Below, in pieces: positions 5,369-42,710 of a stretch of 64,000 nt of DNA. Origin of the DNA: Octopus vulgaris (taxonomy: Eukaryota). The stretch spans positions 71,486,001-71,550,000 of the forward strand of contig OX597817.1 of the NCBI GenBank assembly GCA_951406725.2. The letters run 5' to 3'. A program made the position numbers and the translations under genes. How positions within the stretch are numbered: the first letter of the stretch is position 1; each line of letters begins with the position of its first letter. The notes below the pieces were generated by a model that saw nothing but the letters and a program-made list of their open reading frames with translations, did not search any database and was not told where the DNA came from.

Positions 5369-5405
5369 ATACCATTATATATATATACACAAACACACAC
5401 ACAGA

Positions 5406-6289: not shown

Positions 6290-6336
6290 CACACACACAT
6301 ATATTTATTACCCGATTAGGGTAAACGTGATTTCCA

Positions 6337-6510
6337 ATCCAGAAGTCGTGAGCTTCCGGAGATAGCCGAACTAGGTCGTGTATCCACTTACGTTTACCAA
6401 TGATGCAAAGTAGGCTAGTTTCGTATTAAATGACACTGCGAACATGATTCGTACTAATGAACAATTTCCCCTTATTTGAATCCTTTGATGTACAATTTGC
6501 AATAAACATG

Positions 6511-6579
<69 letters not shown>

Positions 6580-7110
6580 GGGTTCAGGGAATATAAAAGC
6601 ATAACAAACATGAACGTGAAAAGAATGAAGAAAAAGAACGAGATAGAACGGTCACAATTGGTGAGAGAGAGAGTGAGAGATAGACGGCGCTGAATGTGTC
6701 ACTTACTTCCTGTTGGAACGGATTGCTAACGATAACGTTCTCCATGCAGATGATTAAACGGTCGACAGATAATTTGTTACTTTAACTTCATCGGTAAATA
6801 TATTTGTTCAGTTTGATTTTACAATCTGTTTTCTTAAAAAATAAGTTATCGTATGCAAAACATAAATGCAAAAATGTCCGACCGGAAGAAGATTTAAGGC
6901 GCATGTGCGATATCAAAACGAGGTTGTTTCCCGATTTCGTTGATAACACGAATATTATAATGAATAATTGCTATGTTTTCTGAGCGAGGCTCAACAGAGG
7001 AAAAGCGAATAGAAATGCTGACCTAATTTTCATTCAACCAACAGTTTATTGCCTGATCGACCAGTTTACATGTCATATTGCCTCGTTTCTAAATTGCGTT
7101 CGGTTGAAAT
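6337..7110 (-). promoter_or_regulatory. Paralogous promoter/non-coding first-exon cassette, copy 1
   Basis: GCGCATGTGC 6899-6908, CCGGAAG 6882-6888, uORF ATG at 6791 (MKLK*), donor GTAAGT = rc of 6701-6706, intronic ETS-like palindrome 6337-6360; homologous to three other copies. Confidence 0.7.
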
Positions 7111-8214
7111 CGCTACTTTCCGTAAGTTCAACCGTATGTTTACGCTCTTCGCTGTTTTATTCGTGAAGACCGCGCCACCACGGCTCTGAACGCTTAACCA
7201 AACAGGCTACTGACAAATAAATCACCATGACGACCACAGCAAAGGGACATCACTCAAAATGTCCATGTATTTCTTGAAAACAAGATCAACAATAACGGAA
7301 TAACAGAAGTTCATGCTATATTATTCCGGCGATTCAATATAGACTAATCTTATACTTGGAAGAGCTCGCAATGGTCTAAATTTCTGACGTCATTGAATGC
7401 ACCTTCCTTATGTTTGGCAAAATGTTTCCTGTGACAAAAGGTTATGCTCCCTAAGTGAATAAGAAGTGTAATTATCAATCACTACATCATTATTTGGCAT
7501 CTAAACTTTCGTACATAATCTTTTTCTCCCTGTTTGCAAAAACGTATATGCACACATTTGAATGTTCAGTTTCTGGCGGGTATTACACTTTAAGAGGTAA
7601 CCTCCTTTAAGAGGCAAAAATCAAAATAAGCAAACCTAATCGTTTGACTTGCAAAATGCATCTACCAAATTTCTCTCAAATCACACAAAAACCACCCCCA
7701 AAAAAACAGACAACAAAAATAAACAATTGGGCATACTGGATTCAGTCACTGATACACTATACAATCATGAAGAATAATACAAAATGGTCCTGGCTGGGAA
7801 ACCTCTGTTTATAGATCTGCTGATGAAGACATAAAACTCTGCTTGATGTGGGACAAGAACATTGGGGGTCACAAGGATTGGTTATATTGTAGTTTCTTAG
7901 AACTATATGGTCTTAATATCTATATGGTTTATGATTCCCTGATGATAACTGTCATGACAAGACAACTGGAGGGGTGATTGTAAACCAAATAACAACACAG
8001 CTGGAACTTATTTTACAAATCTTACATAGAGGAATTAGTGCTAAATAAACGGAAAGACAATAGTTGGCTTTCAAACTTTTGCATTTAAATCAGTGGTAAT
8101 CTAAATTAAAATTATGAAGTTTGTAATCTGTGATGGGAAGAGGAAATCAATGTTTCAAGATTGGGTCTTAATCAGAGAGAGAGAGAGAGAGAAACATTCT
8201 TGAAATAGCATTTA

Positions 8215-8458
8215 TGTTATACATAAAAAGCACCAACCGATCGTGGCCGATGCCAGCCTGCTCTGGCCCCTGTGCCGGTGGCACGTAAAAAACACCCACT
8301 ACACTCACGGAGTGGTTGGCGTTAGGAAGGACATTCAGCTGTAGAAACATTGCCAAATCAGACTAGAGCCTGGTGCAGCCTCCATGGCTTCCAGACCCCG
8401 GTCGAACCGTCCAACCCATGCTAGCATGGAAAACGGACGTTAAATGATGATGAAGATG
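8215..8458 (+). mobile_element. RTE 3'-end fragment / RTE-tail SINE
   Basis: CACCCACTACACTC...GGCGTTAGGAAGG...CCCATGCTAGCATGGAAAACGGACGTTAAATGATGATGA. Confidence 0.8.
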
Positions 8459-9719
8459 AGCATGTAGTATATTAATATCATCATTATCATTGTATTAATG
8501 TCTATTTTTCCATGCATGCAAAAGTCAGATGAAACTATGCTGGGAGAGAGTTTTCTACAGCTGAATACACTTCCTGATGCTAACCATCACTAATTTCCAA
8601 GCACATTGATAATCCCTCAGTTTGCTGAACATCAAACAGTCTAGACACAGTTATGCAGACAGAAGGAAACAAACAACACTACTTGAATGAGACTTTTGTT
8701 TATAAATAGAGAATGCACAAGACCTGGGAAAATACAAACTCATCCCTACAAACACAGAGACACAAAAAAATAAACACACACAATATACTTGTTTTCATCT
8801 ACCAGTTTCACTCACAAAGTACTGTTAAACTTGTGTCTATAGTACAGGATATCAGTAGACAGTGTCCATGCAGTGGGGCTGAACTCTTAACGTGGTTCTG
8901 AAGTGAACATCTTGACCACACAGCATATCTGTGCCTAAATGTAGTAAATCTCTGGTAAGGACAAGGGTATAGTTGTATTGGCATGTAACTATAGGTCAAA
9001 GAATACAAGTGACAAAGTTCAAGAAGTTCACATTCTGTGCAGGAGAGAGTGATGACTTAAGCAAAAGAACATAATTGCATTAATATGTAGGTGAATGTCA
9101 ATGAGCAGTATTAAAGTTCAGTTAAGATTGTGTGGGGGGTCACTAGGAAGTCAAGTAAGGTGTTCATAGTGGCACAGAAGTAGGAATTAAATGGAGAAGT
9201 ATTATCTTCTGAAGTATTTGCATGACAGCCACACACTGTTTAATGAAAACATTTTAGCAATATCTAAGCTTGAAATCAATAGCTGTCCTTGTTTAGTTGA
9301 GATGATATGATTGTAGATTTTTTCTGAGATGCAGGTCAGACTATAGATATTACTGAACATGTTTGTTAGGGTAAATGATTAGGATTTGGGATCAGAAATT
9401 ATGTTGGAAAGGGATAACAATTTTTATTTGTCACACTCATCAGCAATATGTTGCAGATGTTTATCAGAATGCTGTTCAAGTGACAGTTCTTCAAATGCTT
9501 CAGCTGAGGCCCAGAGCATCTTCAGTTCAGTCATAATGAACATATGAATGTCAATGCCAGTAATCTGAAGTGGCATATCTGCATCCTCATCAACCACATC
9601 TAGAAGGTACCCCAGCATGTTCTTCAAATGCAAAATAACATCCATATCTTTTCTTCAGAAACTTTGCTGCTATTTGGCTCTTTAGAGAATAAAAGAAATA
9701 AAGAATAACAGGCGACATG

Positions 9720-10100
9720 CTGTCATAAAGTTTACGAACTCTGAAGCAATTAAGATCTTGAAAACATATGGAATCCTGCCAAGCATTCTTTGAACCAGCG
9801 AGGCCATGAGCACCAACAGCTTAGCACAAGTGATCTCTGTGCACTATGAAATCATGGTGTTTGAGCTGTGACACATTGGTACTCATTGTTTTCATCACAG
9901 ATCTGCAATGTACTCTCCTGCAACAGTTGGTGACTCTGAGGTGCCATATTATACAAATGGTATGGCATCATGTATAAATCTACTGCCATCACTAGGTACA
10001 TAGCCAAAATAGTGCAGTGAATACAAGAGGGTAAATGATAAGCATACAAGTGAAAAAAATTAGAGTGTATCAAAAGAAGTGTACATCACACCAAAACATA
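9720..10100 (+). mobile_element. Highly decayed RTE-like RT fragment
   Basis: KILKTYGILPSIL*TSEAMSTNSLAQVIS resembles the conserved RTE RT segment KILxxYGIP...AMY. Confidence 0.45.
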
Positions 10101-10509
10101 AAAGATATACAGTGGGCAAGAGAACCAAATATAGCTATAGGTATATCCTATTGCCAACCTCCAGCATTACTACCATGTTAACAATAGTTTAACTATGCTT
10201 GCACAAGTGAGTTGATCTTCAGCACTGCACTTCATGTTACGAATAATTGCAGTCCTATCTCATCTCTGAACCATGTGGGCCAAAATAACTGGTAGGTGGA
10301 TGCACTACCACAACGCGAATGGCGACACCTGCCTCGTGACTCCCGCACCAACCTGTGCGACGGCGCACAGGCACGAAACCAGACAGGCAAAGACAGGGTA
10401 GCCAATGATGCATGCAGAGCTTTGCGATCCGATTGCACATGCACCGGCAAATAGGGTTGAGAGTGCAAACAGCACTAGGCATGTCTTTTTGCAATCAACA
10501 TCCTTCATA

Positions 10510-10760
10510 TGTATGTACCAACAGGTATTCTCTCTTGCAAACTGTAAATGATTCCACTTGTAACTAGCTTTTCTCTCACCTTATTTGCATTGCAATTTTC
10601 TTGTACACTAATATTACAAATGCAGCAGATCATGCTTGTTTCATTTCTGTTCATCTTGTTCCAAACCTCACAACAATGTAGCATCATACTATGTACACAA
10701 GCAGCATGCAATCTACTCTTTACTGAGAAACTTAATGTCACCGGAAGAGGCATGACTATG
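10510..10760 (-). mobile_element. Decayed RTE fragment
   Basis: VKSRLHAACVHSMMLHCCEVW...RNETSMICCICNISV, homologous to the RTE at 2750-3000. Confidence 0.7.
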
Positions 10761-11667
10761 ATTTTTTCCACACTTTCACTTGCTACAATGCTTTTGAAAC
10801 ACACACCTTCACTACTAAATAGGTCACCTGGGAAACATGTCATCACTATTTGGGAGAATATATTTCAAAAGTAATGTTATTACCAAAAACTTTTATGCGA
10901 CATATGAAGTCTATATTAGTTTGTCCATTGATCTCATTTAACACTGATAACACTGAAACACTTAATTTCAATAATCATTTTCTACATGTTGAGCAAAATC
11001 TTTCTTTCTAACAAAAATTTCTGTCTCTCCTATGTTTAATTTAAGGTCCCTCAATGCTTGGCTATAGACCAATGTTGGATTTTTAAAAAGACCTATTACT
11101 GATTCAGCGTTAAGAACTAGGTTACCACCATACATTATGGCACATTTACCCACATAAATATAAATACTAACACAGAAGTGAACAAACTAAAGAAGTAAAC
11201 ACTAAATCTATTTGGCTGGAGTTACATATATTTAATAAGTTTGATGCAGCACATTACTTAAAGTTTCATGTATATAGGACATGCTCACCTCATCACAGAA
11301 TGTTCACCTGGTGACAATGTTGACATGACCTAAGCCCACAAAACTTTAAAGAGGAGCTGAGTCAAGCTGTTATTATAAATACGTATAGGTGCATACATAC
11401 ATGTATGAGTGCGTGTGTGTAAATTTATATTCATATATTTGTATCATACAATTTAAACCTCAAATTGCTTGACAATCAGTATTAAGAACTAACTCCATGC
11501 AAATTTCTATTTATGTATGGTGGTTTGATCTCTTATTGTTGAGTCTAGATTTGAGTGTTTCACAGAATATATTTAGAAAAGAAAACATAACATGAGAGGT
11601 TGCATAATTACACCATCTTAAGTATGCTTCCTTAGAATAAAGTGATTATTAGTTATTTTCCTATATA

Positions 11668-12929
11668 CAGGATGTTCAATTTAAAAGTTGACTAAATTGT
11701 ATATACTAATAGTTATAAAGAATGTACAATATTATAGACAAACCTACATTTATCAAAATTCTCATTTAAAAGTTACGTCAAACTGGTTACAGAAGGTGTT
11801 GAGATTGTTGGCTGCCATGTTGCAGACATATGTCATGACATTTGTTTTGGAACACATTAATCAAAACTTCACGTAGAATATTTCGGACAATATCAGTAAT
11901 ATCGGTACACAGTTCATCAAGTGTATGCAGATTCTTTGCAAATACAGTGTCCTTGATATAGCCAAATAAAAAGAAATTGAGAGGCGTTAAGTCTGGCAAT
12001 CTGGGTGGCCAGAGGCCTTTCATGATCAACCTGTGTTCAAAAGTTTGTCAATAGTGAAACAAAGTGTGGTTGCTAATATGACATGTTGCTGAGCCCTGTT
12101 GAAGTCATGTGATACTTCTTTTATTCTCAGTTAGCTGCTCAACACACTGATCAATTATCTCACAATAACGTTCTGAATTCAAGGTCTTTTGGGGAAAACA
12201 TTTAGTCCTACTATTCTTTGCCTGCTGGTAGCCATCCATACACCAATCTCCACTGCATGTAAGGGTGATTCAACAAACTCATGGGGATTGAGAGCAGTCC
12301 AGATGCAAGTGTTTTGCAAATTTAGATATCCCAATAGGTGAAGCCAAGCCTCGTCACTGAAGAAGGTCTTGTCAAGTTGGTTGTCATCCATGTTTTCTTG
12401 AGACCATTTGTAGTAATCCTATCTTTTGGTAAAATCAGGAGGAATAAGTTCATGTAAAGAAGACATGCGGTATGGGTACAATTTCAGCGATTTGCGAAGA
12501 GCAGTATGGCAGCTGCCAACAGATAATCCAGTTTTGTGAGACGTTGCACAGATTTCCTGGGACTGCGAAGAATTCATTGATGGATATATCCCACAACATC
12601 ATCAGAAAGGCAGATACGTTGGTGAACGTGTTTCTCGTTTCCAACTGAGCCCGTCTTCTTAAACATTTTAATTAGAACATTAATTACCTGCTTAAAATCA
12701 GTAACGCAATTGTCAAAGGAGTAAATCTATCGCCTACTGATAAAATGTCCTGATCTGAAATAAGATTCCATAATAAATTAACATTGCTGCACTGATAACA
12801 CCATTACGACTCCAGAAGAAATCTTGAATGAATGTTTTACACTTGTAAAAAGGCTAAAATCAATTTGGCATGGCGAGCCAATATTTTGACAGTTAATCAA
12901 TCGAGTCAACTTTTTAACTGAACATCCTG
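11668..12929 (-). mobile_element. Full-length but decayed Tc1/mariner element (rosa/DD41D-like)
   Basis: 26-bp TIRs CAGGATGTTCAATTTAAAAGTTGACT / AGTCAACTTTTTAACTGAACATCCTG, flanked by TA on both sides; motifs FFSDEAWLHL and WPPRLPDLTPLNFFLFGYIKDTVF; ORF broken. Confidence 0.92.
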
Positions 12930-13314
12930 TAGTACTCAATACAAAATACAATTGAAGAGTTTCATATTTCATTTAAATGTTTGCACCACAATCAGTTTAA
13001 TGTAATACACATAGCGACACTGGTATACTCACAGATATCCATCATCATCGTCAGATGTCTGTTTTCCATGGGCTAGACAGTTTGACAAGAACTGCTAAAT
13101 CAGAAGACTACACCAAGCTCTGCTGTTTGCTTTGGCATAGTTTTTACAGCTGAATGCCTGTCCTAATTTCAGAGTATACTGGGTGCTTTTCACATGGAAC
13201 CAGCAGCAGTGAGGTCACTAAGAAACTTGCAAGACAAGAACCCCTCAACTGAGAGAGCATTGAGGGACAGAAAATCAGTGTCTTGCAGCAGAAGAGAAAC
13301 ATGGCTAACTCATG

Positions 13315-13354
<40 letters not shown>

Positions 13355-13639
13355 AGTAAAAATGTGATGGGGAGAGTGGCACACCCAAGTTGCGGGTAAT
13401 TGTACATAATGCAATGGATCAGGAATCGGAGAAGGTGACTGAGTGGGTAAGTTCACAAGATTGTGAAAAGAGAGTGGAAACTGGGTGGAGAGAGGGAATG
13501 TAGTGAGTAAAGAGAGGGTGTGTGTTTATAATTATACATAGATTATACATATGCATTTATGTACATATACAAGCACATAATCATGTAAACATAAATACAT
13601 CATCTGCATCTCTGCCAAAATGTTAGCTTTAAGACAGTG

Positions 13640-14180
13640 AGATCATCATTTAGTGTCCATTTTCCATGCCAGCATGGGTTAAGTGGCTTGACTGGAACTG
13701 GTAAGCCAGAGAGCTGTACCAGGTTCCAGTCTGATTTCGGCTTTGTTTCTATGCTGGATACCCTTCCTAATGCCAGCTAATCTAAGAATGTAGTGGGTCT
13801 CTTTTACAGGTCATCAACACTAGCTACAACTACGGTTTCACTTGGCTTGATGAGTCTTCTGAAGCTCAGCAAATTACCAAAGGTCTTGATCACTTGTCAT
13901 TACCTCCATGAGACCTAACATTTGAAAATCACGCTTCACCGCCTCATCCCATGTCTTCCTAGGTTCCCACCACAGTTAGAGATCAGCACTCCTTCACACA
14001 ACTGTCCTTGTTCATACACATTACATGACTATACCAGCATGGTTATATCTTTTGCACAACAGATCTGATGCTTCTTATCCCCAAATTTTCTCTCAAGACG
14101 TTTACATTCTGTTGTACATGCATGCTACACTGCCATATAGCATGGCTGTTTGTACACAGGCATCATACACTCTGCCTACT
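13640..14180 (-). mobile_element. RTE 3' fragment
   Basis: Reverse complement of the RTE tail and of the RKTWDEAVK and WYSHV region. Confidence 0.8.
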
Positions 14181-17100
14181 ACTTACACATCATATTATTC
14201 ATATATTATATATATACAGAGGGAATTTTTTACCACTATGTGGAAACCCTAATGCTAGAAGATCCGCTATGGTCTTAACCACTAAGAGTTGTTCTCTAGA
14301 AAATTTAGCAAGCACCAGAAACGTAAGCGAGCAAGACAAATGAAAAGTAACAAAAATATAGATTAATCATAAACAATTGTTTCACTATCAACAAATTACA
14401 TAATTTTACTTACACAATTTATCTGTAGATCTTCAGAATGATCGTCTATACAAAATATAATTTGCAGAACTTCACGCCAGACATCAACACGAGGTCGAAA
14501 ATGCATGCAGTTCTACCTATTACATTTGTGGTTATTTTCAAAAGTCTTCGTTTAGGCACACTGTATATATATATATTCCACAGTTTCATAATACAAAACT
14601 GCTGTAATCATAGGTCTTTGTTTCTATCATATAAAGATCCTTGAATTTTTATGGAATTTTCAGCAATTACAAAAAGAATATAATTCCTTCAGACTTTTAT
14701 TTTTGACTCCCCATTACTTTGTATGTAACTAACTGTTTGTAGACATATGAAAATACATAAACACACATGTATATCTATAAACTATAGCACACATGTGTAT
14801 ATATGAACATACACAAACATGCTGAAACAAAAGTGTAAAAAGAAAGTACATAAATATATATCTACATATATATGTATACACAAACATAGACCTATATTTG
14901 TGATGCATATATATTCCTATATGTAATTATGGTTGTATGATGTATACGCTGTAACTTTTAATGGCATATTTTCATAGAAAAAATTTTTGGATTTGCTTTG
15001 AACATAAAACCTAAATCTGAAAAAAAACTTTTTTTTTTTTTTAAATTCTCTGCTAAGATTTTTGTCAAAAGGTTACAAAAATATAATTTTACAATTATTG
15101 AATATATACAACTTCAGTTATTTATATATATTGAACATATACAACTTCAGTTATATAGTACAGGTATTTTGCTCTTAAATTAAAAAAAAAAAAGATCTTT
15201 TATAAAGAGAAATAAAAAACCCAGACTTCTTTTCTAAAAAAATGTATAATAAACAGATACAGAGATGGAGTGAGCCTGATCTTCTACAGTTGATAGTACA
15301 CTCCAAAACAGATGAGAAGAAATTGAAAAACATTTTTGTCAGCTTCATAAAATCCTACGTTTAAAATACATAATTTAGGAGAGAGAAAAAAAAAGCTGGT
15401 ATTTGAACTTTAGAATAAAAAGGTGGTGTGAGATAGGATATTAAAATTGAAAAAGAAAATATTTTCAAAATGTTTTCTTTTCCCTCCAAAACGAAAAAAA
15501 AAATTATAATGGGAGTTGCTTAGGAAACTGATTTTATATACCCCAGCTAAATTCATATTCAAGATGTGTAATTTGTTTAATACCATGAATTGTTCATCAC
15601 TGTTGGCTTAATCCAAATTGCTTGAATATATAATAATAGTTTTGCTATAGCCACTGATTTCTAAAATCATGAAGTCAGATATTTTTTTTCAGTGTCTAGA
15701 AATTTTATCTAAGACTGCATGAAATTTTTCACGTAGATATATCTTCTCTGAATATGCAATGATTTTATTAAGTTCTGTGGAGAGAAATATGCTGGAAAAA
15801 TCATGAGATGTTTTATACTCCACTTGGATGTTTTTTAGATACATAGGTACGCACATATGTACATACATGGGCAACATATACAATTGACAGAGTACAATAC
15901 TAGAAACATTGGAATAGACACAAAACTAAAGAGTTAACCATTGTAAGTGTCTACAGGTCATCATCATCATTTTACATCCACTTTCTACATTAGCATGGAT
16001 TGAACAGTTTGACAGGATCCAGCAGGTCAGAGGACCAGATAATTTTTGGCATGGTTATTATGGCTGGATGCCTTTGCTAATAATGCTAACCACTTTACAT
16101 ACCACTGGATGCAATCTTTCATAGCACCAGCACAATACAAGTTGCCTTACCATCAGTTAGACTACAGTACTCTTTTAAGATTTGTACTGTCACTGTTTCA
16201 TTCGATTTACTAACTACTCACAGATAATATGGCTCAAGACAAAAAGAGATCCTCATGATGGATGGCATAAATTTATTGCTTTTTAGAGGATTGTCTTTAA
16301 TCCTGTTTCAGTCATTTGAAGGATTTAGCAAAATAAATTGACTCTAGTACTAATTTAAGTCTGGTACTTATTTTCTGCTGTTAGTTTATATCTGTTTTAC
16401 TTTGCTGAACTGCAAAGAAAAGGGACATAAACTAACAGCAGTTGCTAAGCAATGGTGATGGTTGGGACAAATACATTCTTTTACACGTTTCAGTCATTTG
16501 ACTGTGGCCATACTGAAACATCATCTTAAAGGGTTTTAGTTGAAGAAATTGACTCTAGGACTTATTCTTTGTAAGCCTAGTACTTATTTTATCAGCCTCT
16601 TTTGCCGAACTACTAAGTTATGAGGGATATAAAAACACCACTAGCCTAAGATGCTATGCAGAGGTACTGAACCTCGAACCTTGTGGTTAGGAAACAAACT
16701 TCTTACCACACATAGGCTTCTACACAATTTTGTCTGCCACAGTCACTTACAAGTCACTGGTCAGCCCAGGGCTCTAGTAGCAAACATTTGCCAAAGATGT
16801 TTGTGCAGTGGGAATGCACATAGATGCAAAGTGTGTGTGGTTTGACAGCACAACCATGCCTACAACTATGGTAGTAAAGAGAAAAACAGAAGGAATACTG
16901 ATAGGTGTAATGAAGGCAGAAGGCAGAGGAAGAATAAAAATTTTTAAAAAACTCTTTTTAAAAGAAATTCTTTTCCAATTTATTTTGCTGAATTACAAGA
17001 TAAATATACAAGAAAAACTAAAACCCATAAATAGAGAAAAATAATGCACAGTAAAAATGCTAACAATGAATGGACAGATATTCAACATAAGCACACCAAT

Positions 17101-17837
17101 TATCCAGCTGTAATTTTTTTTACATTTTTCTCAACAATTTCTTTGGTTTACTAAGTTTTCAACATGAAAGACTACGATTCTGAAAAAAAAAATATTTTTC
17201 TGTAATTTGAGTTTTTGTAATTTTTGCTCCCCACTTAATTTTTGAATCTTTTCTTTGAATTTTCTTTTTCTATTTCCAATACGAAAAAAAACAAAAACAA
17301 AGATCACCATAATTCTGCAATAAGACGGGTTTTCTACCCTCAAAATTTCAGAGACAAAGTGCAAATGACAGAGCTAACTACACACTCCCAATTTGGGCAA
17401 AGGTTTCTCACAGTAAAAACAAAGTTGGCAACATTGCAAAACAGCTTTGGTGATTGTCTTTCATGACAACACTGAGAAAAGAGGATTCTTTCAGTAGGTA
17501 CCAAATTGAACTTCTGAGACATTGGAAGCCACTATCATTTATCTTTTACAGTCATTGGACTGTGGCCAAGCCGGAGCACTGTTTAGTCAAACAAATCAAC
17601 ACTAATTCATATTTATTTTTTAAGCATAGTACTTATTCTATTTGGTCTCTTTCACTGGACCACTAATTGATGATAATGTAAACAAACTAAAACTAGTTGT
17701 CAAGTGGTAGCGAGGTGCACGAGCATATCTATGGCAGGCTTCTACACAGTTTTCATTTACTAAATCACATTGGTCAGCCCAAGGATATAGTTGAAGATAC
17801 TTGCCCATGGTGATGTGAAGGGGGACTAAACCAGAAG

Positions 17838-31409: not shown

Positions 31410-32303
31410 TGCTCTGAGTGTGTAGCTGCTAGAATAATAATAGCCTGGGCAAAGTTCAGAGAGTTCCTACCTCTGCTGGTGACAAAGGGCCTCTTGCTCA
31501 GAGTAAAAGGTAGACCACATGACGCATGTGTGCGAACAGCCATGGGCTGTGACTGCTGAGGACATGCATCAGCTTGCAAGGAATGAAGCTAATATGCTCC
31601 GCTGGATGTGTAATGTCAGTGTGCATACACGACAGAGTGTAAGCACCCTCAGAGAAAAGTTGGACATAAGAAGCATCAGATGTGGTGTGCAAGAGAGATC
31701 ACTGCACTGGTATGATCATGTGTTGCATATGGATGAGGACAGCTGTGTGAAAAAGTATCACACTTTAGCAGTAGAGGGAACCTGTGAAAGAGGTAGACCC
31801 AGAAAGACCTGGGATGAAGTGGTGAAGCACAACCTTCGAACATTGGACCTCATAGAGGCGATGCCAAGTGACCGAGACCTTTGGAGACCTTTGCTGTGCT
31901 TGAGAAGACCCGGCAAGCCAAGTGAGACCGTAACCATGGCCAGGCCAGTGCAGCATAACCAGCCTATTAAAGAATACCCTTCCCATCATTTGCCAATAAA
32001 CTGTGCTTGCAAAGACCTGTTTAGCCAAGTGAAGTCATTGTCATAGCCAATGACAGTACTGCCTGATTGGCACCTGTACTGGTGGCATGTAAAAAGCACC
32101 ATTCAAGCGTGGTCAATGCCAGTACCGGCTGACTGGCCCTCGTGCCAGTGGCATGTAAAAAGTACCCACTATACTCTCAGAGTGGTTGGCATTAGGAAGG
32201 GCATCCAGATGTAGAAACTTTGCCAGATCAGATTAGAGCCTGGTACAGCCTTCAGTCAAACCATCCAAACCATGCCAGCATGGAAAGTGGACGTTGAACA
32301 AAA

Positions 32304-32338
<35 letters not shown>
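31410..32338 (+). mobile_element. RTE 3' fragment
   Basis: IAWAKFREFLPLLVTKG, RNEANMLRWMCNVS, GRPRKTWDEVVKHNL, (TGA)n tail. Confidence 0.9.
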
Positions 32339-33093
32339 ATCTTCATTATATAAAGGCCCTTCAAATTCCATCCCATTTTCACAGAGATATTGTAAAAAGT
32401 ATAACTAATTTAATTTTGGATTCATTATAATGCCCTTTTTGTGGTAAATGCCTTGCTCACAAGATTTGGCAGAAAAGGTGGGATACACTACCAGAAAGAC
32501 TGAAACTGAGAACAAATGAAAAGATCCACCAATTTAAATATCAGCAGAATAACTGACACTAACAAAACCAGCATTTATTAATTTTTTGTGATTATTTCAC
32601 TGGAATACAATCTGAAAACAATTATAAAAGCAAAAGCAAAACAAACAATAGAATAATTTGACTATCTACAAATGCTGAATGGTGGACATCAGGAATTCAC
32701 TGTCACCACCACTACCACTATGCTCTGAGAAAAATGTTAAATTATACATTATACTGGGTTAAATAGAAATTTAATATTCATTTGATTAAGTACTATGGTT
32801 AACAATTTTTTTTTATTATAAACATTCAATTAGGCACATTAGGCACTCTGTGAACAGGAATCCATGTTAGAACAAATGTCCACAGGCCCACCTACAGGAC
32901 TTGAACTAATTATCTCTCATAATCCAGTCTAGGAAACCATGCTAGCTATTACACCATAGTGACCAGGTATAATTGTTTCATCTAATTTAGTATCCATAAA
33001 GTATCAGTATGTCAACTACATTGTTAATAACTGTCTCGTTTAACAAAATTTCATTGTCTGAAATTCTCAATGTTATTATGATTTTGAAAGATA

Positions 33094-33971
33094 CAAGGTA
33101 GTATCAAAAAGTTCTCAGACTAGTTATGTTTAATAAAAAATAACTGATTTACCAAATTTTTACATTATCCCCTTTGAAATAGTTACCTTGTGCAGCAATA
33201 CACCGGTCCCAGCATTCCTGCCATTTTTGGAATCTGGCCTAGAAGTTGATTTCTGTAAGTGAGTTGAGGCCCTTCTGCAATTCACACTTGATCTCTACAA
33301 CAGTGTTAAAATGGGAAGATGATAGAACACCACAGGTGCTAAATCTGGTGAACAGGGTGGGTGCGGAAGTGATACCATGTTGATTTTAGCAAGAAACTCA
33401 TGAGTGAGGAGAGCTCAGTAACAGGATGATTTGTCTTTGTGAAGAATCCAATTCTTCTCAGATGCTAGGATTACCTGCATGGACCTATATGACAGACCAA
33501 CAACATCAGTAATGTTGTTGATTGTCCTCTGATGATCCTCATGCACAAGCTGATGAATTTTCACCACATTATCGGAGGTGACACTTGTGGAAGTTCTTCT
33601 ACATTGCTCATCATCTTTCAGGGAGGTTCTTCTGCTTTTGAAGTGTCCGTGCCACTCAAAACATGGTGTACAACATATTGTCTCATCACTGTAGGCTTAC
33701 TGAAGCATGCTCAATGCCTCTGTAAGAAGCCTCCCACATTTAGTGCAAAATTTCATGTTAGCTAGTTGGTCAAATTTCCTGTCCATGGCAAAAATCGCAG
33801 ACAAAAATACAGTATGCATGTGATCATAAAAACACAAATTTCCCAATTTGTGAAGTAAACAGCAATTTCACTCGGCACACTGTCTCATGAAGGTCACTGC
33901 ACATGCAACCATGTGCTGCCAACTGTTGGCATGCTACAGAATTAGTTCAGGAAAATTTTGATACCATCTTG
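33094..33971 (-). mobile_element. Internally deleted mariner element
   Basis: TIRs CAAGGTAGTATCAAAAAGTTC / GAAAATTTTGATACCATCTTG; minus-strand remnants HPPCSPDLAPVVF and FQKWQECWDRCIAAQGNYFKG. Confidence 0.8.
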
Positions 33972-35141
33972 AACTATGGGATATTAATATTAGTAGAATA
34001 CAAGGCAATGAATTGGCAGAATCATTAGCATGCTGGGCAAAATGCTTTGTGGCATTTCATCTGTCCTCACATTCTAAGTTCAAATTCTGCTGAGGTTAGC
34101 TTTGCCTTTCATCTTTTCACTGGGGTCAATGTCATCAAAAAACTGATGACCTTGTGCTAAATTTGAAACCAATATTAGTAGAAATTGATAAAGGAAAATA
34201 GTTGAAGTTTTTGATTATGAACATTGAATTAAATTAAATTAGACACTTTAGAGACACAAATCCATGATCAAAAAATGTGCATGTAACTGCCCATGGAATG
34301 GAAACAATATATCTTGCAATCCAGACAACTATACTATCCTTTGGAACAAAGCAAGCATGCACACCCTCTCCAAACAACTTAGTGCCCTAAAACCATACAT
34401 TTCTGAGAAACATACTTATCTTATCTCCCACCCGAGAGACATTCAAGTTCTGTTGTCTAAATTCACAAGATTTAAACATTAGAGTGATTATACTTCCTGC
34501 CCCAAACTCCTAAATCAACCAACCCTAAGTTGCCCAACCCTATAAGGAAGGGAAAAGCTGCTTATTCCCAAACTCCTCCAGCAGGAGTTTGCTTAACTCC
34601 TTGAATGCCATTGTGTAGAATGTATTTGCAAAACCCTCTAGATGCATAGTCAAGAATAGGTGTTTTCCTAGTACCCTAATTGTCAAGAAAGAGTGTTTGC
34701 ATAACTCCCTAAACATCACTAAATAGAAAGTCGCTGTAAATCCCACCATCTTAATTTATGATTTATGAAGCTGCTAAAGATACCAAAATAAAGCAAGTGA
34801 AAGAATTTTGACTAAAATGATATTTCAAATGTTACCAATAACTATTTCAAATTTTTGACACATGCTCAGCAGATTTAGTGGGAGGGGAACGATCGATTAC
34901 ATCAACCCCAGAACTTGACTGGTACTTTATTTTATTGAATACATAAAGATGGAAAGCAAAGTTGACTTTGGCAACATTTGAACTCAGACCATAAAGAGCT
35001 GGAAGAAATGTTGTTAAGCATTTAGTCCAGTCCAATGTGCTAATGATTCTGCCAACAGGAAAAGCCATTTTGGTATTCCAGAAATGAAAAACCAGAATTG
35101 GACATTTTTCAAAAACATTATTTGATGATCCAAATAAGATC

Positions 35142-36650
35142 ATCATCATCATTTAGCATCTGCTTTCCAGGCTGGCATGGGTTAGACAGTTTGACTGGAA
35201 CTGGTAAGCTGGAGAGCTGTACCAAGTTCCCATCTGATTTTTAGCTTGGTTTCTATGGCTGGATGCACTTTCTAATGCCGACCACTCCAAAAGTGTAGTG
35301 GATGCCTTTAACGTGTCACCAACATGGGTGCTTTTACAAGTCACTGACTCCGGCCACAACTATGATTTCACTTGATGAGTCTTCTCAAGTACAGCATATC
35401 ACCAAAGGTTTAAATCACTTGTCATCCCCTCCGTGAAACCCAACTTTTGAAGATAGTGCTTCACCATCTTGTCCCATGTCTCCTTGGGTCTACCTCTTCC
35501 ACAGGTTCCCTCCACAGTTAGAGATTGGCACTTCTTTACACAGCTGTCCTCGTTCATATGCTATACATGACCATACCAGCACAGTTGCCTCTCTTGTACA
35601 CCACATCTGATGCCTCTTATGCCCAATTTTTCTTTTAAGACACTTACACTGTCGCACATTCACACTGATATTGCACATCCTGTGAAGCATACTAGTTTCA
35701 TTTCTTTCAGGTCTTCGGATGTCCTCTGTGGTCACAGCCCATGTTTCACTGCTGTGTAACATGGCTGTTCACACATAGGCATCATACAATCTGCCTTTCA
35801 CTCTGAGGAAGAGGCCCTCTGTTACCAACAAAGGAAAAAGCTCTCTGAACTTTGCCCAGCTTATTCTTATTCTAGCAGCTATGTTCTTGGAGCATCCACC
35901 TCTGCTACTGACTTGGTCACCTGGATAACAGAAGCCATCAACTAATTCTAGGTGTCAATTTTCTGTACATTTCTACTGTTAATTGTACCTGTGTGCCTGC
36001 CACACACAAAAACTAATTTCTCTGTTAACCTTCCTTTGATATTGTTGTACCTCTAATGTATCCATAACTTGCACCGAATACATCTTATGGAGTTTCTACC
36101 TTCACCTTTTCTACATATCGAGATTTGAGATTTGTCCACTTTCCTACTTACTAAGACTTTTGTTTTTGCTAAATTAACCCTAAGGCTCTTTGATTCTACA
36201 CCTCGCTTCCATATCTGAAATTTCTTCTCTGGTTCTGGTAATGATTCAGCTATAAGAACAAAGCCATCAGCATACAGGAGCTCCCAGAGGCAGCTTGACT
36301 TAAATTCCTCTGTTATTGCCTAGAGGGCATGATGAACAAGAGGAAGCTGAGAATTGACCCTTGGTGATCTACTTGTACCCTGAATACATTGCTATACTCG
36401 TTGCCAACCCTCACGTTACTAACAACATCTATGTACTTGGCTTGCACAGCTCTCACCAGCCACTCATCTATCCCTAGTTTCTGCATTGATCACCAAATAA
36501 AGGAGCAGAGAAACCTCTTGAAGGCTTTCTCCAGTACAGAGGTTTATTTTTGGCTAGGTACTTCTCCTGCTGTTGTCTTACCAGGAATATAGCATCAGTG
36601 GTGCTTCTCCCTGACACAAAACCAAACCACATCTTACCTAGATTAACTCT
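35142..36650 (-). mobile_element. RTE LINE fragment (RT + PHD + 3' UTR)
   Basis: FGFVSGRSTTDAIFLVRQQQEKYLAKNKPLY, LWELLYADG, PHD remnant, MLHSSETW, family tail. Confidence 0.9.
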
Positions 36651-37181
36651 CTTCAAAAACAATATTCAACAGTCCCTTTCAGTTTTCAAGTATGTATATG
36701 TACAGTTCATATTCAAATTTCAACACAGAGGTAAGTTTAGCCCCAGTTGAACCTGAGAAAACATATGTTTAACAGCATTCCTGTTGCAACCATTCTGGGT
36801 TGTTTCTATTTTTTAAAGCCAAAATGTATCTTAAACTACATTATCCTTTGTTTCTTTACTTATAAAAGAGTTAATATAACTTATAGACTAGGAATTGTAA
36901 TCCCAGATGTTTAAAATAAAAATCTAAAGCCATTCTCATGAAACAGACAATTAAATAAAGAAGTAAATGAAATTCTTATTTTAAAATGCTAGCAATTATT
37001 CTATGCCTCTCTTCTTATAACATAGCTAAAGTACCCATATAACTCAGAGGTGAGGTAAAATGCATTCACAGCATGGATGTAAATGAAAGAAATGTAGTGG
37101 TTCAGTAAATACCTTGCAAAAATGGGATATAAGAAATTGAGAAATCAAGAAAAACTAATTAACTTAATTAGTTTTTTTCAG

Positions 37182-37415
37182 TCATCTATGAAAAACTTCA
37201 AGTTTGCTGTAGATGACTCTAGTGACAACATTGTGTTTGAAGAGAACCAAGAAGCAAGTGGAGAGAATCGATTAATCAAAGGGGGAACTCTCCTAAAACT
37301 TGTCGAACGACTCATGTACCATATGGATGCTGATCCCAAATTTGTACCGACATTCCTTACAACCTATAGATTCTTCTGTACACCACAAATGCTGTTGGAT
37401 CTTTTAATTGAATGA
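37182..37415 (+). pseudogene. SOS: Orphan exon of a Son-of-sevenless Ras-GEF (REM/RasGEF-N domain), apparently non-functional
   Basis: [14 protein letters not shown]...[47 protein letters not shown] matches my recollection of SOS1 FAEPDSEENIIFEE...[48 protein letters not shown]. Acceptor TTTTTTTCAG precedes it; it ends TG|ATAAG (no GT, in-frame TGA). Confidence 0.85.
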
Positions 37416-37719
37416 TAAGATTAAGATAATTCCCTTTCAAAAATTCAGTTTGATAAGTTATAAACCAAAAATGTATTATATACTAAAGTTAAGTTTATCC
37501 TAAAACAATTCACCACTTACATTAATTTTATTAAAAATAAACATCACAGATGTACATACACACTCCTTTATAATGTTATTTTTTATGAAATACACAACCT
37601 GTTTATTTCAGTTGAATTTAAAATTAATCAAGAATTTAGAGGAATTTAGAGTAAAATAACTAAGTTTAATATTATTATTATTATATGTTTGATGTTTTCT
37701 TTGTAATTCGACAAGCTGA

Positions 37720-38195
37720 CTCCAAGTCTCACCCAGAGACCTCAAGTTAGAAGTTCAAGCTGGTGTTATGCCTAGGGTGTCATAAATTTGGTTTTGCACA
37801 TAGTATTACTCGAGAGAATGTTTAAGAAAACATAAGAAAATTATAAGTTTATTTTAAAATTTGAGATTACATAGACAGAATTTTATGTAGGATATGGGCA
37901 GTTCCTATGAATATTATCTTTTGAATTTCTGCCATTTTGGGGTTTCCTGGTATCTGATGAGCTAGATAGGAATCAGCCCTTTTGCTGTCATTCCTAGGGC
38001 ACCTATGACAACAGGTATTGTTTTAGTATTGAGGTGTTACATTTTGCCAGTTTCTACTTCAAGCTCTTTATACTTGCTCAGTTTTTAGTAGGTCTTGACA
38101 GATACATTTATGTCGATTGGGACAGTCATATCAATGAGGGGGAATGATTTTTGTCTGAAATCTTTCTGGCCTATTTGCTCCTATGTTTTTGTCAG
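37720..38195 (-). mobile_element. 3' end of a restriction-like-endonuclease non-LTR element (R4/Dong-like)
   Basis: LIDMTVPIDINVSVKTY*KLSKYKELEVE...TIPVVIGALG...PGNPKMAEIQK...GTAHILHKILS. Confidence 0.7.
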
Positions 38196-38229
38196 TTGTT
38201 TGTTTGTTTGTTGCTGTTATTGTTGTTAA

Positions 38230-39040
38230 GAAGGCAGCAAGCTGGCAGAATCATTAGCATGCTGGATGAAATGCTTAGTGGTATTTCGCCTGTTGGTACG
38301 TTCTGAGTTCAAATTCTGCTAAGGTCGATTTATCCTTTCAGGGTCGATAAAATAAGTACCAGTTGGACACCAGGGGCAATGGAATCAACTCATCCCAACC
38401 TCTCACCAAGCTACCCTGGTGGCAAAAATTTGAAATAATTATTATTATCAGTTTGTTGAGTGGTTAGGAAGGGCATCCAGCTGTAAAAATCCTGCCAAAA
38501 CAGTTACAGAAGTCTGGTGCAGGCTTCTGCCTGGCCAGTTCTTATCAAACCATCCCACCAATGTCAGCATGGAAGGTGAACGTTAAACAATGATGATTAT
38601 TATTAAGAAGGTAGTAAGCTGGCAGAATCGTTAGTGTGCTGGACAAAATGTTTAGTGGTATTTTGTCTGTCACTATCTTCTGAGTTCAAATTCCGCTGAG
38701 GTCAACTTTACCTTTCATCCTTTCAGGGTCGATAAAATAAGTACCAGTTGAACACTGGGGTTGATGTTATTAACTGATCCCCTCCCCCAAAATTGTTGCC
38801 CTTGTGGCAAAATTTGAAACTATTATTATTATTATCATTAAGCTAAGACAATGAAATGGCATAATTGTTAGCACACTAGACAAAATTCTTAGTGGTGTTA
38901 CATTCTGAGTTCAGATTCCACTGAGGTCAACTTTGCATTTTCTCCTTTTGGGGCTAATAAAGTAAGTATCATTGAAGCACTGGGGTAATTGAGTATCCCA
39001 CTGCCTTGAACTTCTTAGCCTTGTGCCAAATGTTGAAATT
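38230..39040 (+). mobile_element. Cluster of three degenerate tRNA-derived SINEs plus an RTE tail
   Basis: Repeated AAGGC.G..AGCTGGCAGAATC.TTAG...GAGTTCAAATTC.GC..AGGTC.A.TT...AAGTACCAGTTG units at ~38230, ~38607 and ~38845. Confidence 0.8.
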
Positions 39041-40041
39041 CATATTACTATGATCCCATCACCTTTAAACAGAGTCTGGACAGATTTCTTCAAGGAATAC
39101 TGGAAAAGGCACCCATACCTGGATACAACTCACTCAACAAGAACTCACTACTTGAATGGACCATAAACAAAACTTGACTTAAACAGGATTTAGATAATCC
39201 TATCAGGTGGTGCTATTAAGTTAGACATAGCCTGGACCAATCTTTGGTCAAAATATATCTAAGTTTTATTAAGTTAGCGTCTGAGCATAAAATTATGGTG
39301 CAAGGTTTAAATTTAAATTATTTGCATTTTAAAATGATAAATTTTGTATAATGAGACCAGCGTAGTCTCAGACAAGTGGATTGATATAAAAGAGTTAATG
39401 GTTTGTAAAGAATGAACTTTGAGCTGACAGCAATTGGAATCAAAATCAAACGAGACGGAATTAAAAGGCATACATTTATCTTTTATCTTTTACTTGTTTC
39501 AGTCCCTTTTGACTGCGGCCATGATGAGGCACTGCCTTGAATTTTTAGTCAAATGAATTGACCCCAAGCCTGGTACTTATTCTGTCGGACTCTTTTGCTG
39601 AACCACTAAGTTATGAAGATGTAAACACACCAACACTGGTTGTCAAGTGGTAATGGGGAGACAAACAGAGACACAAAGACACACACACATAGATATATAT
39701 ATATGTTGTGGCCAATGACAGTACCGCCTGATTGGCACACATGCCAGTGGCATGTTAAAAGCACCATTTGAGCGTGATCATCACCAGTGCTGCCTGTCTG
39801 GCTTCTGTGCCAGTGGCACACAAAAAACACCATTCAATCATGGTCGTTGCCAGTGCTGCTGTCACATAAAAAGTACCATTTGAAACTTCTCAAACCCTGC
39901 ATCATCCACTTGCAACAAAGACACCACACTGATTCTTATGGACAGAGGATTCAAAAGCATTCTCGAATGGGAATATGCTAATCTTCTCTCTTTCAACAGT
40001 AAGAAAACACAATTGCTACACATACAAAGAAAACAACATTG

Positions 40042-40168
40042 TATTATCCTGTCCTGTACGAGAGGAACCGCAGGATCAGAGCAACAGTTTGCACGCTGTG
40101 TTTGCAGGCTACCTCTGAGCGATAACGGCTGAACGCCTCTAAGCTGGAACTGTAGCCGGACCTGAGTT
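40042..40168 (+). pseudogene. Large-subunit (28S) rRNA fragment including the sarcin-ricin loop, retro-inserted
   Basis: ATCCTGTCCTGTACGAGAGGAACCGCAGGATCAGA...GCTACC.CTGA..GATAACGGCTGAACGCCTCTAAG follows the order of eukaryotic 28S AATCCTGCTCAGTACGAGAGGAACCGCAGGTTCAGA...GCTACCATCTG..GGATTATGACTGAACGCCTCTAAG. Confidence 0.85.
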
Positions 40169-40169
40169 T

Positions 40170-40401
40170 AAGGTGGCGAGCTGGTAGAAATGTTAGCACA
40201 CCGAGCGAAATGCTTAGCGGTATTTCGTCTGCCATTACATTCTGAGTTGAAATTCCGCCGAGGTCGACTTTGCCTTTCATCCTTTTGGGGTTGATAAATT
40301 AAGTACCAGTTACGCACTGGGGTCGATCTAATCGACTTAACCCCTTTGTCTGTCCTTGTTTGTCCTCTCTATGTTTAGCCCCTTGAAGGCAATAAAGAAA
40401 T
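40170..40401 (+). mobile_element. tRNA-derived SINE with AATAAAGAAAT tail
   Basis: AAGGTGGCGAGCTGG head, B-box-like GAGTTGAAATTCC, tail TGTCCTTGTTTGTCC...AGCCCCTT...AATAAAGAAAT; TSD AAGAAAACAACATTG at 40027-40041 and 40402-40416. Confidence 0.9.
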
Positions 40402-41651
40402 AAGAAAACAACATTGCATTACACCTCTCTTGCACATGAGCAACGCACAACCAGAACCTTTGCAATCACACAAATTATTGGGCCACAATATCAATGAGGA
40501 TTACTCCTAGCAAAAAACATTCTTTACATAGCTAGTACTGAATCCCAATGACTGACCCTTCTCTCCAAGGCTACAAGATACTTTATCTGCCAACAATATT
40601 GACATTTCTGCAAAAATCACATGAAAACCACAATGAAGAATAGCTCCCCATCAGGGATGGTGCTACTGCTACGCACACAGACATGTTAAAACCGTAACAT
40701 CTGCAAAAAAGCCACCTCAATGTGTGGCATATATTATTTGAAGACACTGTCCAGCCTCTGGCCCATAGGCACTTTTGTCATCTCTACCTTTTCTGCTTGC
40801 TCTATAATGGACTCTACTCTTCAGTGTTGTCTGGACTCATGCCAATTACACCCAGGCATTCCCGATCTACACATTTCTTCTCCTCTTATCACACCCTTTG
40901 CACCAAACCCAGTTCACCAGGCCCTGCATTAGCCATAATACCTAGTCCTTCCTTTACAGAATAATGGCCCTCTGGAATTCGTTCTGTACTCATGTCTTTC
41001 CCACAAGGATAACTTGCAATAATTCATAGGAAACATAAATAGATTCAATCTCTATGATATCAGAGGGTCTGCAAAGACCATAGGCACTCCCTTTTTTCTG
41101 AACTCAGTAAAGAAAAAGCAATGAAAATTTTCCAATTGAATTCTTATGTGTGGTAACAAATATCAATTGCAATTCATAATTATCCTAAATTGCATTTCTA
41201 AAGGCTATTTAAATTGTATTCATTTTGATTCATATTGTTTACTGTTTCAGTTGCAATTTGAACTCAAATATAACTGCAAATGCAAAAAGAGAAAATTAAA
41301 TCAGATTGTTAAATAATATTTTTGAGAAAGACAGGATAATGCTGTCTAGGAAAATCTTTTTCACCATAAATCAAGATGGCATGGTTGGAATGCTTTTGAT
41401 CAAACATTTTCTCACAAAACTGGATAAAGACTAACTGTAGTGTAATTTTTAAATAAATGGCGCGCGACCGCACTCACACACACACGCACGCACGCATGCG
41501 AAAGTAAATCGAACCGTTAAATAATATTCTTTAAAATGTCTGCTTTGGACTGTGGCATCATTGGTGTACTCGCAAAAACTTGAGTGCAGTTTACTGTCGT
41601 AAAAAAGTGAAAGTAAATTGCCCTAAAAAAATGAAAGTAAATTGCGATACA

Positions 41652-42710
41652 ATCCGGAAGTGACGACAATGACATCCCATAATTTCATGTAAACACTATC
41701 TGACATAAAGAAAGTATAGAACGTGCATTTATTTCATAAAACATGAAAACCGTACATATATATATATTTAAGGACAATTTACTTTCATGGTAAACTTGAT
41801 GCTAACCAGGGAACGTAATTAAAAAAAAACCAGTTCTACCAAGGATCACAGATGGAGAAAAACTAGAGAGTTCCTTCTTGACTTTGCTCTCAGCTAAGAT
41901 CGGTTATGTGAACGTAGGCACTATGTTTTCTGTGAAAAAGTGTGATTAGGAAGCGAGTGCCTTTCTATTTCAGTACGTAAAGAGCGAAGGTAATCAATAA
42001 TGTTAGTTTCCTTATTTGGTCCTACAAACGATTGTCTGCTTTATTTGGAAACTGTTAATCAATTTGTTTTTGTGATAAACATGAATCAAAAGTAGACATA
42101 TATATTCAGAGAAAGAAAGAGAAGAAATAAATCTCAGAAAAAGACGTCCTGGAATTTGTAAATAAGAAAGAGAGGAGAAAGAGAAGTACAGGGAGAGAAA
42201 CAGAGAGAAATAAATATAAAAAAAAAAGGAAAGAGAGAGCGAAATATATATTGAAGATGTCACTTACTTCCTGTGAGAATGAATCGTTTATGAATCACCA
42301 ATCAGAATGTTGTTGATGCTGACGATTAAGCAGACGATAAACAAGGTTTTGCTAGTTTAACTTCATCAATAAATGTATTCAGTTTGTTTATATAATTTGT
42401 TTTCCTTAAAATTAAGCCAACATATGCAAATCATGGAGAGCAAAACTATAGAATCGGAAGTAGAATTAAAGCGCATGTGCAAAATCAAAATGAGGCTGAT
42501 CAGCCTCGATTTCGATTTTCTTGTATTATAATGTGTATTAATATGCATATTTTCCGAGCTGTAAGTTAATGACATTCCAGAAAAAGACTGAACTTTATTT
42601 GATTGGATTGTTAGACTCAGTTAAGGACAACAAATAGCTGTTTTGTTTTCAGACAATATCATTTGCCCGATCGACAGACTCCAATGCTTACACGTTCTAA
42701 ATTGCATGAG
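41652..42710 (-). promoter_or_regulatory. Paralogous promoter/non-coding first-exon cassette, copy 4
   Basis: GCGCATGTGC 42471-42480, TCGGAAGT 42454-42461, uORF ATG at 42366 (MKLN*), donor = rc of 42262-42267, intronic ATCCGGAAGTGACGA at 41652. Confidence 0.7.

Follow-up and report, generated by a model that had tools for sequence, protein, structure and literature searches.

Four paralogous first-exon cassettes probably serve a single protein-coding gene in Octopus vulgaris

The closest precedent for the array described here is hydra (CG1338) of Drosophila melanogaster, in which first exons and their upstream regions are duplicated in tandem before a shared body; in the portion of that report available, at least four of the duplicated first exons act as start sites and the protein is lineage-restricted, with no known homologue (PMC1904467). 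The same portion describes nine first exons with nine codons, young in age (5-13 Myr), near-identical, mostly DINE-1-flanked and testis-biased (PMC1904467). Among vertebrate loci, UGT1, GCNT2 and the clustered protocadherins have tandem paralogous first exons, an upstream motif for each and one or more constant exons, and the glucocorticoid receptor, NOS1 and plectin are named, in the accessible part of the same article, among genes with multiple variable first exons (PMC1885805). A survey of human, fly and worm reports, in its available text, that exons duplicated in tandem are common in UTRs and linked to initial exons used in a mutually exclusive way; the 5' examples given there, UGT1A and hydra, have coding first exons (PMC9013439). 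Our literature search, mostly of non-subscription papers and of main texts, turned up nothing published about this gene, nor about an array of this kind in a cephalopod. In chelicerates, sDscam reportedly has invertebrate tandem 5' cassettes, which are coding Ig cassettes generating isoform diversity. Many first exons of the glucocorticoid receptor, NOS1 and plectin genes are non-coding and are not known to be copies of each other.

The octopus array probably belongs with these tandem duplicated alternative first exons. Like hydra, as far as the available portion of its description goes, it has paralogous first exons in the same orientation at one locus, a common body and an apparently lineage-restricted protein; unlike hydra, its copies are about 30% diverged, lie 7-16 kb apart, are mostly non-coding, have no shared flanking element that we could find and show signs of broad expression. 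As described in part for UGT1 and the protocadherins, a conserved motif lies upstream of each exon, but the octopus locus has one constant exon, and whereas the variable exons of UGT1, GCNT2 and the protocadherins encode whole protein domains, three of the four octopus exons add no residues and copy 3 at most a short leader. The octopus gene would resemble the glucocorticoid receptor, NOS1 and plectin, as covered in that article, in making one protein from several promoters. In our view all four cassettes are probably paralogous first exons belonging to a single protein-coding gene, likely with a promoter each; copies 1 and 4 likely join the shared exon as copy 2 does and as copy 3 is annotated to do in a related octopus.

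The cassettes were located in a stretch of 64,000 nt of the O. vulgaris genome (hereafter the window), in which the following features were assigned.

6654..7080, minus strand: cassette 1; promoter motifs 6878-6907, first exon end 6707, donor GTAAGT 6701-6706
19594..20106, minus strand: cassette 2; promoter motifs 19812-19841, first exon end 19641, donor 19635-19640
26483..26979, minus strand: cassette 3; promoter motifs 26727-26756, first exon end 26536, donor 26530-26535
42215..42695, minus strand: cassette 4, the outermost; promoter motifs 42455-42479, first exon end 42268, donor 42262-42267
6332..6451, minus strand: conserved intron-1 block of copy 1 (nhmmer)
19683..19739, minus strand: putative upstream ORF of 18 codons in the copy 2 exon
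1..6706, minus strand: intron common to all cassettes, continuing beyond the left window end to the shared coding exon

The first-pass annotation had recognised four diverged copies of one unit in the same orientation, and these are real paralogues, the pairwise identity of their 268-nt cores being 67-77%. The core alignment contains 120 invariant columns out of 302, compared with 29 or fewer in 30 shuffles. The sequence ACTTACTTCCTGT is present at 6701, 19635, 26530 and 42262 and nowhere else within the 64-kb window, and its first 12 letters do not recur in the surrounding 464 kb, where nhmmer found no further cassette either. Successive cassettes are separated by 12.9, 6.9 and 15.7 kb. Identity peaks with 0.87 at the donor, 0.75 in the motif block and 0.72 in the 3' exon; within the intron and at far-upstream positions it is down to 0.46-0.52. 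Relative to the donors, the homology is limited to roughly -0.9 to +0.4 kb, with ends that vary from pair to pair. All four cassettes keep CGGAAG-N10-GCGCATGTG with the exact 10-nt spacer, the two motifs being what we take to be ETS/GABP and NRF1 sites. No Rfam match was obtained in the window.

Some details of the earlier description had to be adjusted. The donor, called perfect, does match the consensus at +1 to +6, but the last exon base is A and not G. CCGGAAG is present in copies 1-3, whereas copy 4 has TCGGAAG, and copy 4 also lacks the GACATTTT motif. The conserved intronic block has paralogues at 19260-19369 in copy 2 and twice in copy 3 (25863-25975 and 26160-26268), but nhmmer detected none at copy 4. 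The ATG of the copy 2 upstream ORF is common to all four exons; in the others it opens ORFs of 4 codons (6777-6791, 26621-26635 and 42352-42366). A C2H2 zinc-finger cluster, considered as a candidate, was rejected, as the 464 kb contain isolated pattern matches only and no tandem finger arrays.

A coding body left of position 1 had been predicted, and a single coding exon of 6.2 kb was found there on the minus strand, beginning 22 kb left of the window.

G000:C4:71457802-71463971 (locus L007), minus strand: shared coding exon, 22,030-28,199 nt left of position 1
end near C4:71477150, minus strand: likely optional 5'-UTR exon, placed by inference from O. sinensis isoform X4

An acceptor AG lies immediately upstream of the coding exon, the main ATG is 10 nt in and about 2,070 codons follow. 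This assembly has a one-base frameshift in the exon near C4:71461850, which splits the gene in one annotation.

Splicing of copy 2 to this exon was seen in sequencing-run contigs, which were examined for 4 of 24 runs (presumed RNA) at copy 2 only. Contigs of runs X1 (study P1) and X8 (study P3) stop fitting the genome at 19640, and their loose letters match a single place within 464 kb, namely where the coding exon begins after its AG. Thus in two of the four runs, from two studies, copy 2 is joined to the shared exon by removal of a GT-AG intron of 41,669 nt, with copy 1 skipped. The copy-2 contigs of runs X3 and X4 (study P2) run about 100 nt into the intron without a junction, and run X1 has unspliced contigs as well. 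Since the protein start has one genomic match and the cassette four, no processed copy was found that could mimic the junction. The proposal that the cassettes splice to a common body left of position 1 is therefore borne out directly for copy 2 by the contigs and, for copy 3, by the N-termini of O. sinensis RefSeq proteins described below, so that more than one cassette joins the same downstream exon. The alternative that each cassette heads an lncRNA is excluded for copy 2 by its junction and disfavoured for copy 3 by the same N-termini.

Four tandem genes, three of which have lost their coding exons, would leave an identical layout of 5' ends. Neither the coding exon nor the 1.5 kb of intronic sequence preceding it left any trace between the cassettes by blastn or tblastn, the protein start is single-copy, and the homology is confined to the surroundings of the donors; we regard such a history as highly unlikely, and it concerns the origin of the array only, present use being that of alternative first exons. 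An ordinary tandem cluster, with a coding exon for each cassette, is contradicted by the same lack of remnants. The space between the cassettes had been described as free of any coding body, which is correct for the shared exon, but a RasGEF_N exon fragment, a dead copy from elsewhere, lies on the plus strand between copies 3 and 4.

The first exons had also been taken as non-coding. This holds for copies 1, 2 and 4, which contain in-frame stops and would therefore yield an identical protein, but may not for copy 3, whose 44 open codons continue the reading frame of the main ORF and which the O. sinensis annotation treats as coding. At 26609 the copy 3 peptide agrees in 23 of 24 residues with the N-terminal sequence of the O. 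sinensis isoforms X1, X2, X3 and X6, with CTG at the position of the Met of those proteins. Four of the seven O. sinensis isoform proteins thus begin with the copy 3 peptide, one (X7) begins at the common ATG and two have other short leaders; for the leader of isoform X5 (MRR) no placement was found. Isoform X7 is represented by three accessions with identical proteins. They start where proteins made from copies 1, 2 and 4 would, and they may tentatively be assigned to those copies.

Copies 1 and 4 are likely also used as first exons; their predicted introns to the shared exon would span 28,735 and 64,296 nt, respectively. The spliced contig of run X1, a single contig at depth 2.4, carries 22 loose letters, and the predicted numbers are 22 with a copy 4 junction, 15 with copy 1 and 20 with copy 3, assuming 31-mer contigs, presumably the assembler setting. 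The length fits a copy 4 junction and hints that copies 2 and 4 were active in one sample.

The CpG landscape gives a further view of the four copies.

1..41000, no strand: section of the CpG-depleted domain that falls in the window; mean o/e is 0.33 within the domain and 0.84 beyond it

This domain, from about -30 kb to +41 kb, is the sole low-CpG domain in 464 kb and matches the unit from the gene's 3' end to copy 4. The o/e values are 1.55, 1.10, 1.38 and 0.82 for copies 1 to 4; CpG-rich islands lie at copies 1-3, and as the value of copy 4 is that of the unmethylated flank, copy 4 has no island. Ten of the 12 high-CpG 500-nt bins inside the domain coincide with a cassette or lie no further than about 1.5 kb from one. 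The other two, 19.5 kb left of the window, were considered as a fifth promoter and rejected, for they look like a repeat insertion. In octopus, methylation marks constitutively expressed gene bodies and is scant in promoters, according to the accessible part of the source (PMC9476566). With CpG depletion as a proxy, the domain would be methylated, and a depleted body suggests constitutive expression.

These data bear on whether no more than one or two of the cassettes (copies 2 and 3) function, copies 1 and 4 being decaying relics. No direct junction was seen from copies 1 and 4 in run contigs examined at copy 2 only, and copy 4 lacks the intronic block and GACATTTT and has an altered ETS-like site. 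However, copy 1 ranks first among the four in CpG o/e within a depleted body, the depleted domain reaches copy 4, both copies retain the 13-mer donor and the motif spacing at about 30% divergence, and three X7 accessions exist in O. sinensis. We therefore think decay of copies 1 and 4 unlikely and favour four working first exons.

The cassettes had been judged not to be transposon-like, and this stands: two cassette queries gave four matches in the genome (counts are lower bounds), all inside the window, with no dispersed copies among them. On the other hand, an LTR family also carries the motif pair with the same spacer, close to its 5' end, and the cassettes could be transposon or LTR remnants co-opted as promoters. 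The pair occurs at 226 genomic places against 1 for the reversed control, a different shared spacer is present in 96 of 100 among the matches listed, and a TG..CA repeat of ~416 bp is common to three query loci and the rest of the 12 compared. Outside the 25-nt motif, however, none of 32 cassette-versus-LTR flank scores (4 of the 12 LTR loci used) exceeded the shuffle maximum, whereas cassette-versus-cassette flank scores were 100-218. An LTR origin is thus extremely improbable, and the pair and spacer in the LTR family would fit a working promoter module.

The encoded protein, of about 2,070 aa, is of low complexity and carries the automatic RefSeq name 'mucin'. It has no signal peptide or membrane anchor (19-residue hydropathy peaks at 1.05 and is at most -1.15 in the N-terminal windows) and no Pfam family at E 0.1, mucin-associated domains included, and a mucin identity is not supported, all three being absent. 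Word-limited searches found no homologue outside Octopus, only an O. sinensis/O. vulgaris cluster, and a word-limited search for shorter homologous proteins gave no match. In the ESM Atlas the N-terminus had no usable match and the C-terminus gave leads at 0.78-0.79 only, within the range of shuffled proteins; the PDB search returned a single chance-level match (E 0.15). The protein is likely nuclear and disordered. This large 'mucin' gene is apparently misnamed and likely a nuclear orphan.

In the model that we propose, a promoter/exon/intron-start unit of ~0.7-1 kb would have been tandemly duplicated long ago, repeat insertions would have pushed the copies apart, and selection would have preserved the donor, the core of the exon and the pair of motifs. 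Every putative promoter, with its presumed factor sites, would start a transcript with ~125-200 nt of first exon, and splicing from its donor would bypass the cassettes further downstream, since a first exon can do without an acceptor; copy 3 may contribute about 28 extra residues. From the contigs at copy 2, the O. sinensis annotation for copy 3 and the likely use of copies 1 and 4, it is likely that four related on-switches at this locus serve what is essentially one protein. The most likely purpose would be to make the output of a broadly expressed gene additive or tuned to context, and not to diversify isoforms.

An analogy with the protocadherins had been drawn, in which one cassette would be used per cell or cell type, exclusively or at random. 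In layout, with variable exons in tandem, a conserved motif in front of every one and a constant part, the array resembles UGT1 as partly described (PMC1885805), and copy-2 contig patterns vary between runs. But three of the four exons yield the same protein, so that choice would make no identity code, the CpG-depleted body suggests constitutive expression, and the run X1 contig hints at copies 2 and 4 in one bulk sample, although per-cell choice is compatible with bulk data. The analogy is weak, the exons being mostly non-coding and the promoters apparently housekeeping-like, and protocadherin-like choice seems distinctly unlikely. Tentatively, four promoters duplicated long ago and maintained one by one may place a single Octopus-restricted, disordered nuclear scaffold of 2,070 residues under tissue- or cell-specific control, with the shared uORF and the near-cognate CUG leader of copy 3 tuning translation. 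The locus would then exercise a choice of promoter that brings no diversity of protein, and its copies would be four natural variants of a single ETS/NRF1-like module also used by an octopus LTR family; we hold this possible but doubtful.

The array is no evidence of a protocadherin-like identity code. If our model is true, it would mean that the duplication of promoters by itself, adding at most a little new protein, can survive until the copies are about 30% diverged. Octopus promoter grammar is little studied; since four diverged promoter copies would drive one exon, the positions conserved among them would mark what an octopus promoter needs, which makes the array a clean natural experiment.

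The 13-nt donor sequence ACTTACTTCCTGT, which itself holds what we take to be an ETS-like core, occurs four times in the window. The units that carry it and the shared coding exon lying to the left of the window are as follows:

6701, minus strand: donor of copy 1
19635, minus strand: donor of copy 2
26530, minus strand: donor of copy 3
42262, minus strand: donor of copy 4
G000:C4:71457802-71463971 (locus L007, on the chromosome contig carrying the window), minus strand: shared coding exon, 6.2 kb

The cores of the four copies are 67-77% identical in pairwise comparison, and 120 of the 302 columns of their alignment are invariant, whereas 30 shuffled controls reached no more than 29; the four paralogous promoter and first-exon cassettes proposed by the first-pass annotation are thus confirmed. 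Conservation was 0.87 at the donor, 0.75 in the motif block, 0.72 in the 3' exon and 0.46-0.52 in the intron and far upstream, with about 0.42 in shuffled alignments. Two whole-genome DNA searches gave four matches, all inside the window (counts that are lower bounds), and a profile search of 464 kb (the window and 200 kb on each side) did not find a fifth copy.

Local repeats were also observed in the window. A conserved intronic block of copy 3 is doubled by local tandem duplication (25787-26305, about 230 nt, 85%); an inverted repeat pair, possibly a MITE, lies shortly downstream of copy 1, within intron 1 (5406-5680 and 6047-6289, 79%, about 275 nt); and tandem duplications are located at 17838-18468 (315 nt x 2, 99%) and 51512-52069 (184 nt x 3, 94%). 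On the plus strand, 37202-38270 is a DNA copy (about 1.07 kb) of a RasGEF_N, SOS-like exon at 42.897 Mb of G000:C4 (L051); it comprises the exon and the following intron (86% overall), has lost the donor and appears to be a captured piece of a gene.

Each of the four copies retains CGGAAG-N10-GCGCATGTG, the two motifs of which are presumably those of ETS/GABP and NRF1. This motif-pair pattern has 226 genomic matches, compared with 1 for the reversed control, and among the 100 matches listed, 96 share a spacer differing from that of the cassettes. At the 12 loci fetched the pair belongs to a TG..CA repeat of about 416 bp, which we regarded as an LTR because a frame that we take to be integrase-like adjoins one of the two examples examined in detail. 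Members of this LTR family, at L052-L063 (contig G000:C1) and many other places, carry the pair 65 nt from the LTR 5' end and often occur as two same-strand copies separated by 4.5-4.9 kb or about 2.4 kb. An LTR origin of the cassettes is not detectable, since outside the motif none of 32 cassette-LTR comparisons exceeds its shuffles. That cassettes and LTRs have this module in common fits a promoter function. The four exons also have in common an upstream ATG, located 85-100 nt ahead of the donor, which opens a uORF of 18 codons in copy 2 and of 4 codons in each of the other three; the remaining upstream ATGs vary among copies. The conserved block around the common ATG may act as a uORF or as a DNA site.

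A six-frame scan of the flanks revealed, 22-28 kb to the left of the window, two long frames on the minus strand that overlap each other and comprise 744 and 1,353 codons. The first starts immediately after a pyrimidine-rich AG, and an ATG follows 10 nt inside the exon. Both frames match one cluster of nine proteins, consisting of seven O. sinensis isoforms (2,070-2,098 aa, automatically named mucin-3A/5AC) and two O. vulgaris predictions (P0004 and P0005) that correspond to the two frames; O. sinensis has one protein. Since the 2,070-aa isoform aligns to both frames (99.4% and 98.2%), we concluded that they are one exon, divided in this assembly by a single-base frameshift at a run of A (about 5850 of L007, G000:C4:71461850), probably an error in the consensus. 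The start of the protein matches the genome at one place only, and the DNA between the cassettes holds no remnant of the coding exon. The copies diverge from one another by 23-33%, far more than the coding exon of this genome does from that of O. sinensis (1-2% of residues), so the cassette duplications predate the split between the two. Within 464 kb (G000:C4:71286001-71750000), neither a second CpG-depleted domain nor another long non-repeat frame was recognised, and the gene seems to sit alone there, in a scan that would miss short-exon genes.

Sequencing evidence came from four of the 24 listed runs (none of the 24 recorded as RNA), examined at copy 2. The contigs of runs X1 (study P1) and X8 (from study P3, under a different organism code) cease to align at 19640, and their unaligned ends match a single site in 464 kb, where the coding exon begins. 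Copy 2 is therefore joined to the coding exon across a GT-AG intron of 41,669 nt, with copy 1 skipped, and the splicing to a shared body left of position 1 that had been suggested earlier is borne out for this copy. Runs X3 and X4 (study P2) gave solely contigs extending about 100 nt into the copy-2 intron, which may represent nascent RNA or DNA. The promoter-side contig ends at 19765, 19784 and 19837 hint weakly that transcription starts 125-200 nt upstream of the donor. A separate run-X8 contig upstream of the copy-2 promoter (19920-20100) may reflect divergent transcription or intronic RNA derived from copy 3 or copy 4.

O. sinensis isoforms X1, X2, X3 and X6 (labels unrelated to those of the runs) begin with a 28-residue leader, which matches the copy 3 exon at 26609 in 23 of 24 compared residues, CTG here replacing Met. 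Copies 1, 2 and 4 contain in-frame stops and so would yield the 2,070-aa form; this form comprises three accessions, and we infer that these correspond to copies 1, 2 and 4. The leader of isoform X4 would fit an internal exon at about -8,850 (negative values count bases to the left of the window, relative to 71,486,000 on G000:C4), and no place was found for that of isoform X5. In the spliced contig of run X1, 22 letters are unaligned. Assuming that the assembler ends contigs at points where 31-mers merge, junctions of copies 1, 3 and 4 would leave 15, 20 and 22 such letters, respectively, and the count in this one low-depth contig would match a copy-4 junction in the same sample.

The CpG o/e of the flanks is 0.58-1.05 (5-kb bins, both sides), but a single domain averages 0.33; its fitted limits, -30 kb and +41 kb, lie a little beyond the stop codon and slightly inside copy 4. 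Inside it, copies 1, 2 and 3 have values of 1.55, 1.10 and 1.38, respectively. According to PMC9476566, octopus methylation is enriched on constitutively expressed gene bodies and scant in promoters and intergenic DNA. Taken with that distribution, the CpG pattern, which is a sequence proxy for methylation and not a methylome, suggests that the stretch running from copy 4 to the 3' end has long been transcribed in the germline, copies 1-3 being shielded as promoters.

The encoded protein consists of 15% Ser, 9% Thr, 9% Asn and 8% Pro, is acidic at its start, has a basic cluster at the C-terminal side and contains six matches to the SUMO consensus. It has no hydrophobic segment (top 19-residue mean 1.05) and no Pfam family, and searches of limited sensitivity found no homologues outside the two Octopus species. 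The mucin identity implied by its automatic name was rejected, as the protein failed the test for it. The protein may well be disordered, and nuclear or chromatin-associated.

Tandemly duplicated first exons that share one body have been described for Drosophila hydra (PMC1904467) and for UGT1, GCNT2 and the protocadherins (PMC1885805), and UTR exon duplications are known in general (PMC9013439). The octopus locus works in the manner of hydra. Of the protocadherin/UGT1 analogy drawn in the first-pass annotation, the tandem first exons on a shared body hold; however, the locus falls outside that class because its variable exons are mostly non-coding. No description of it was found in the literature searched. 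The arrangement seen here is real and well supported, and it differs in that the paralogous probable promoters, which serve an orphan gene, are old, mostly non-coding and housekeeping-like.
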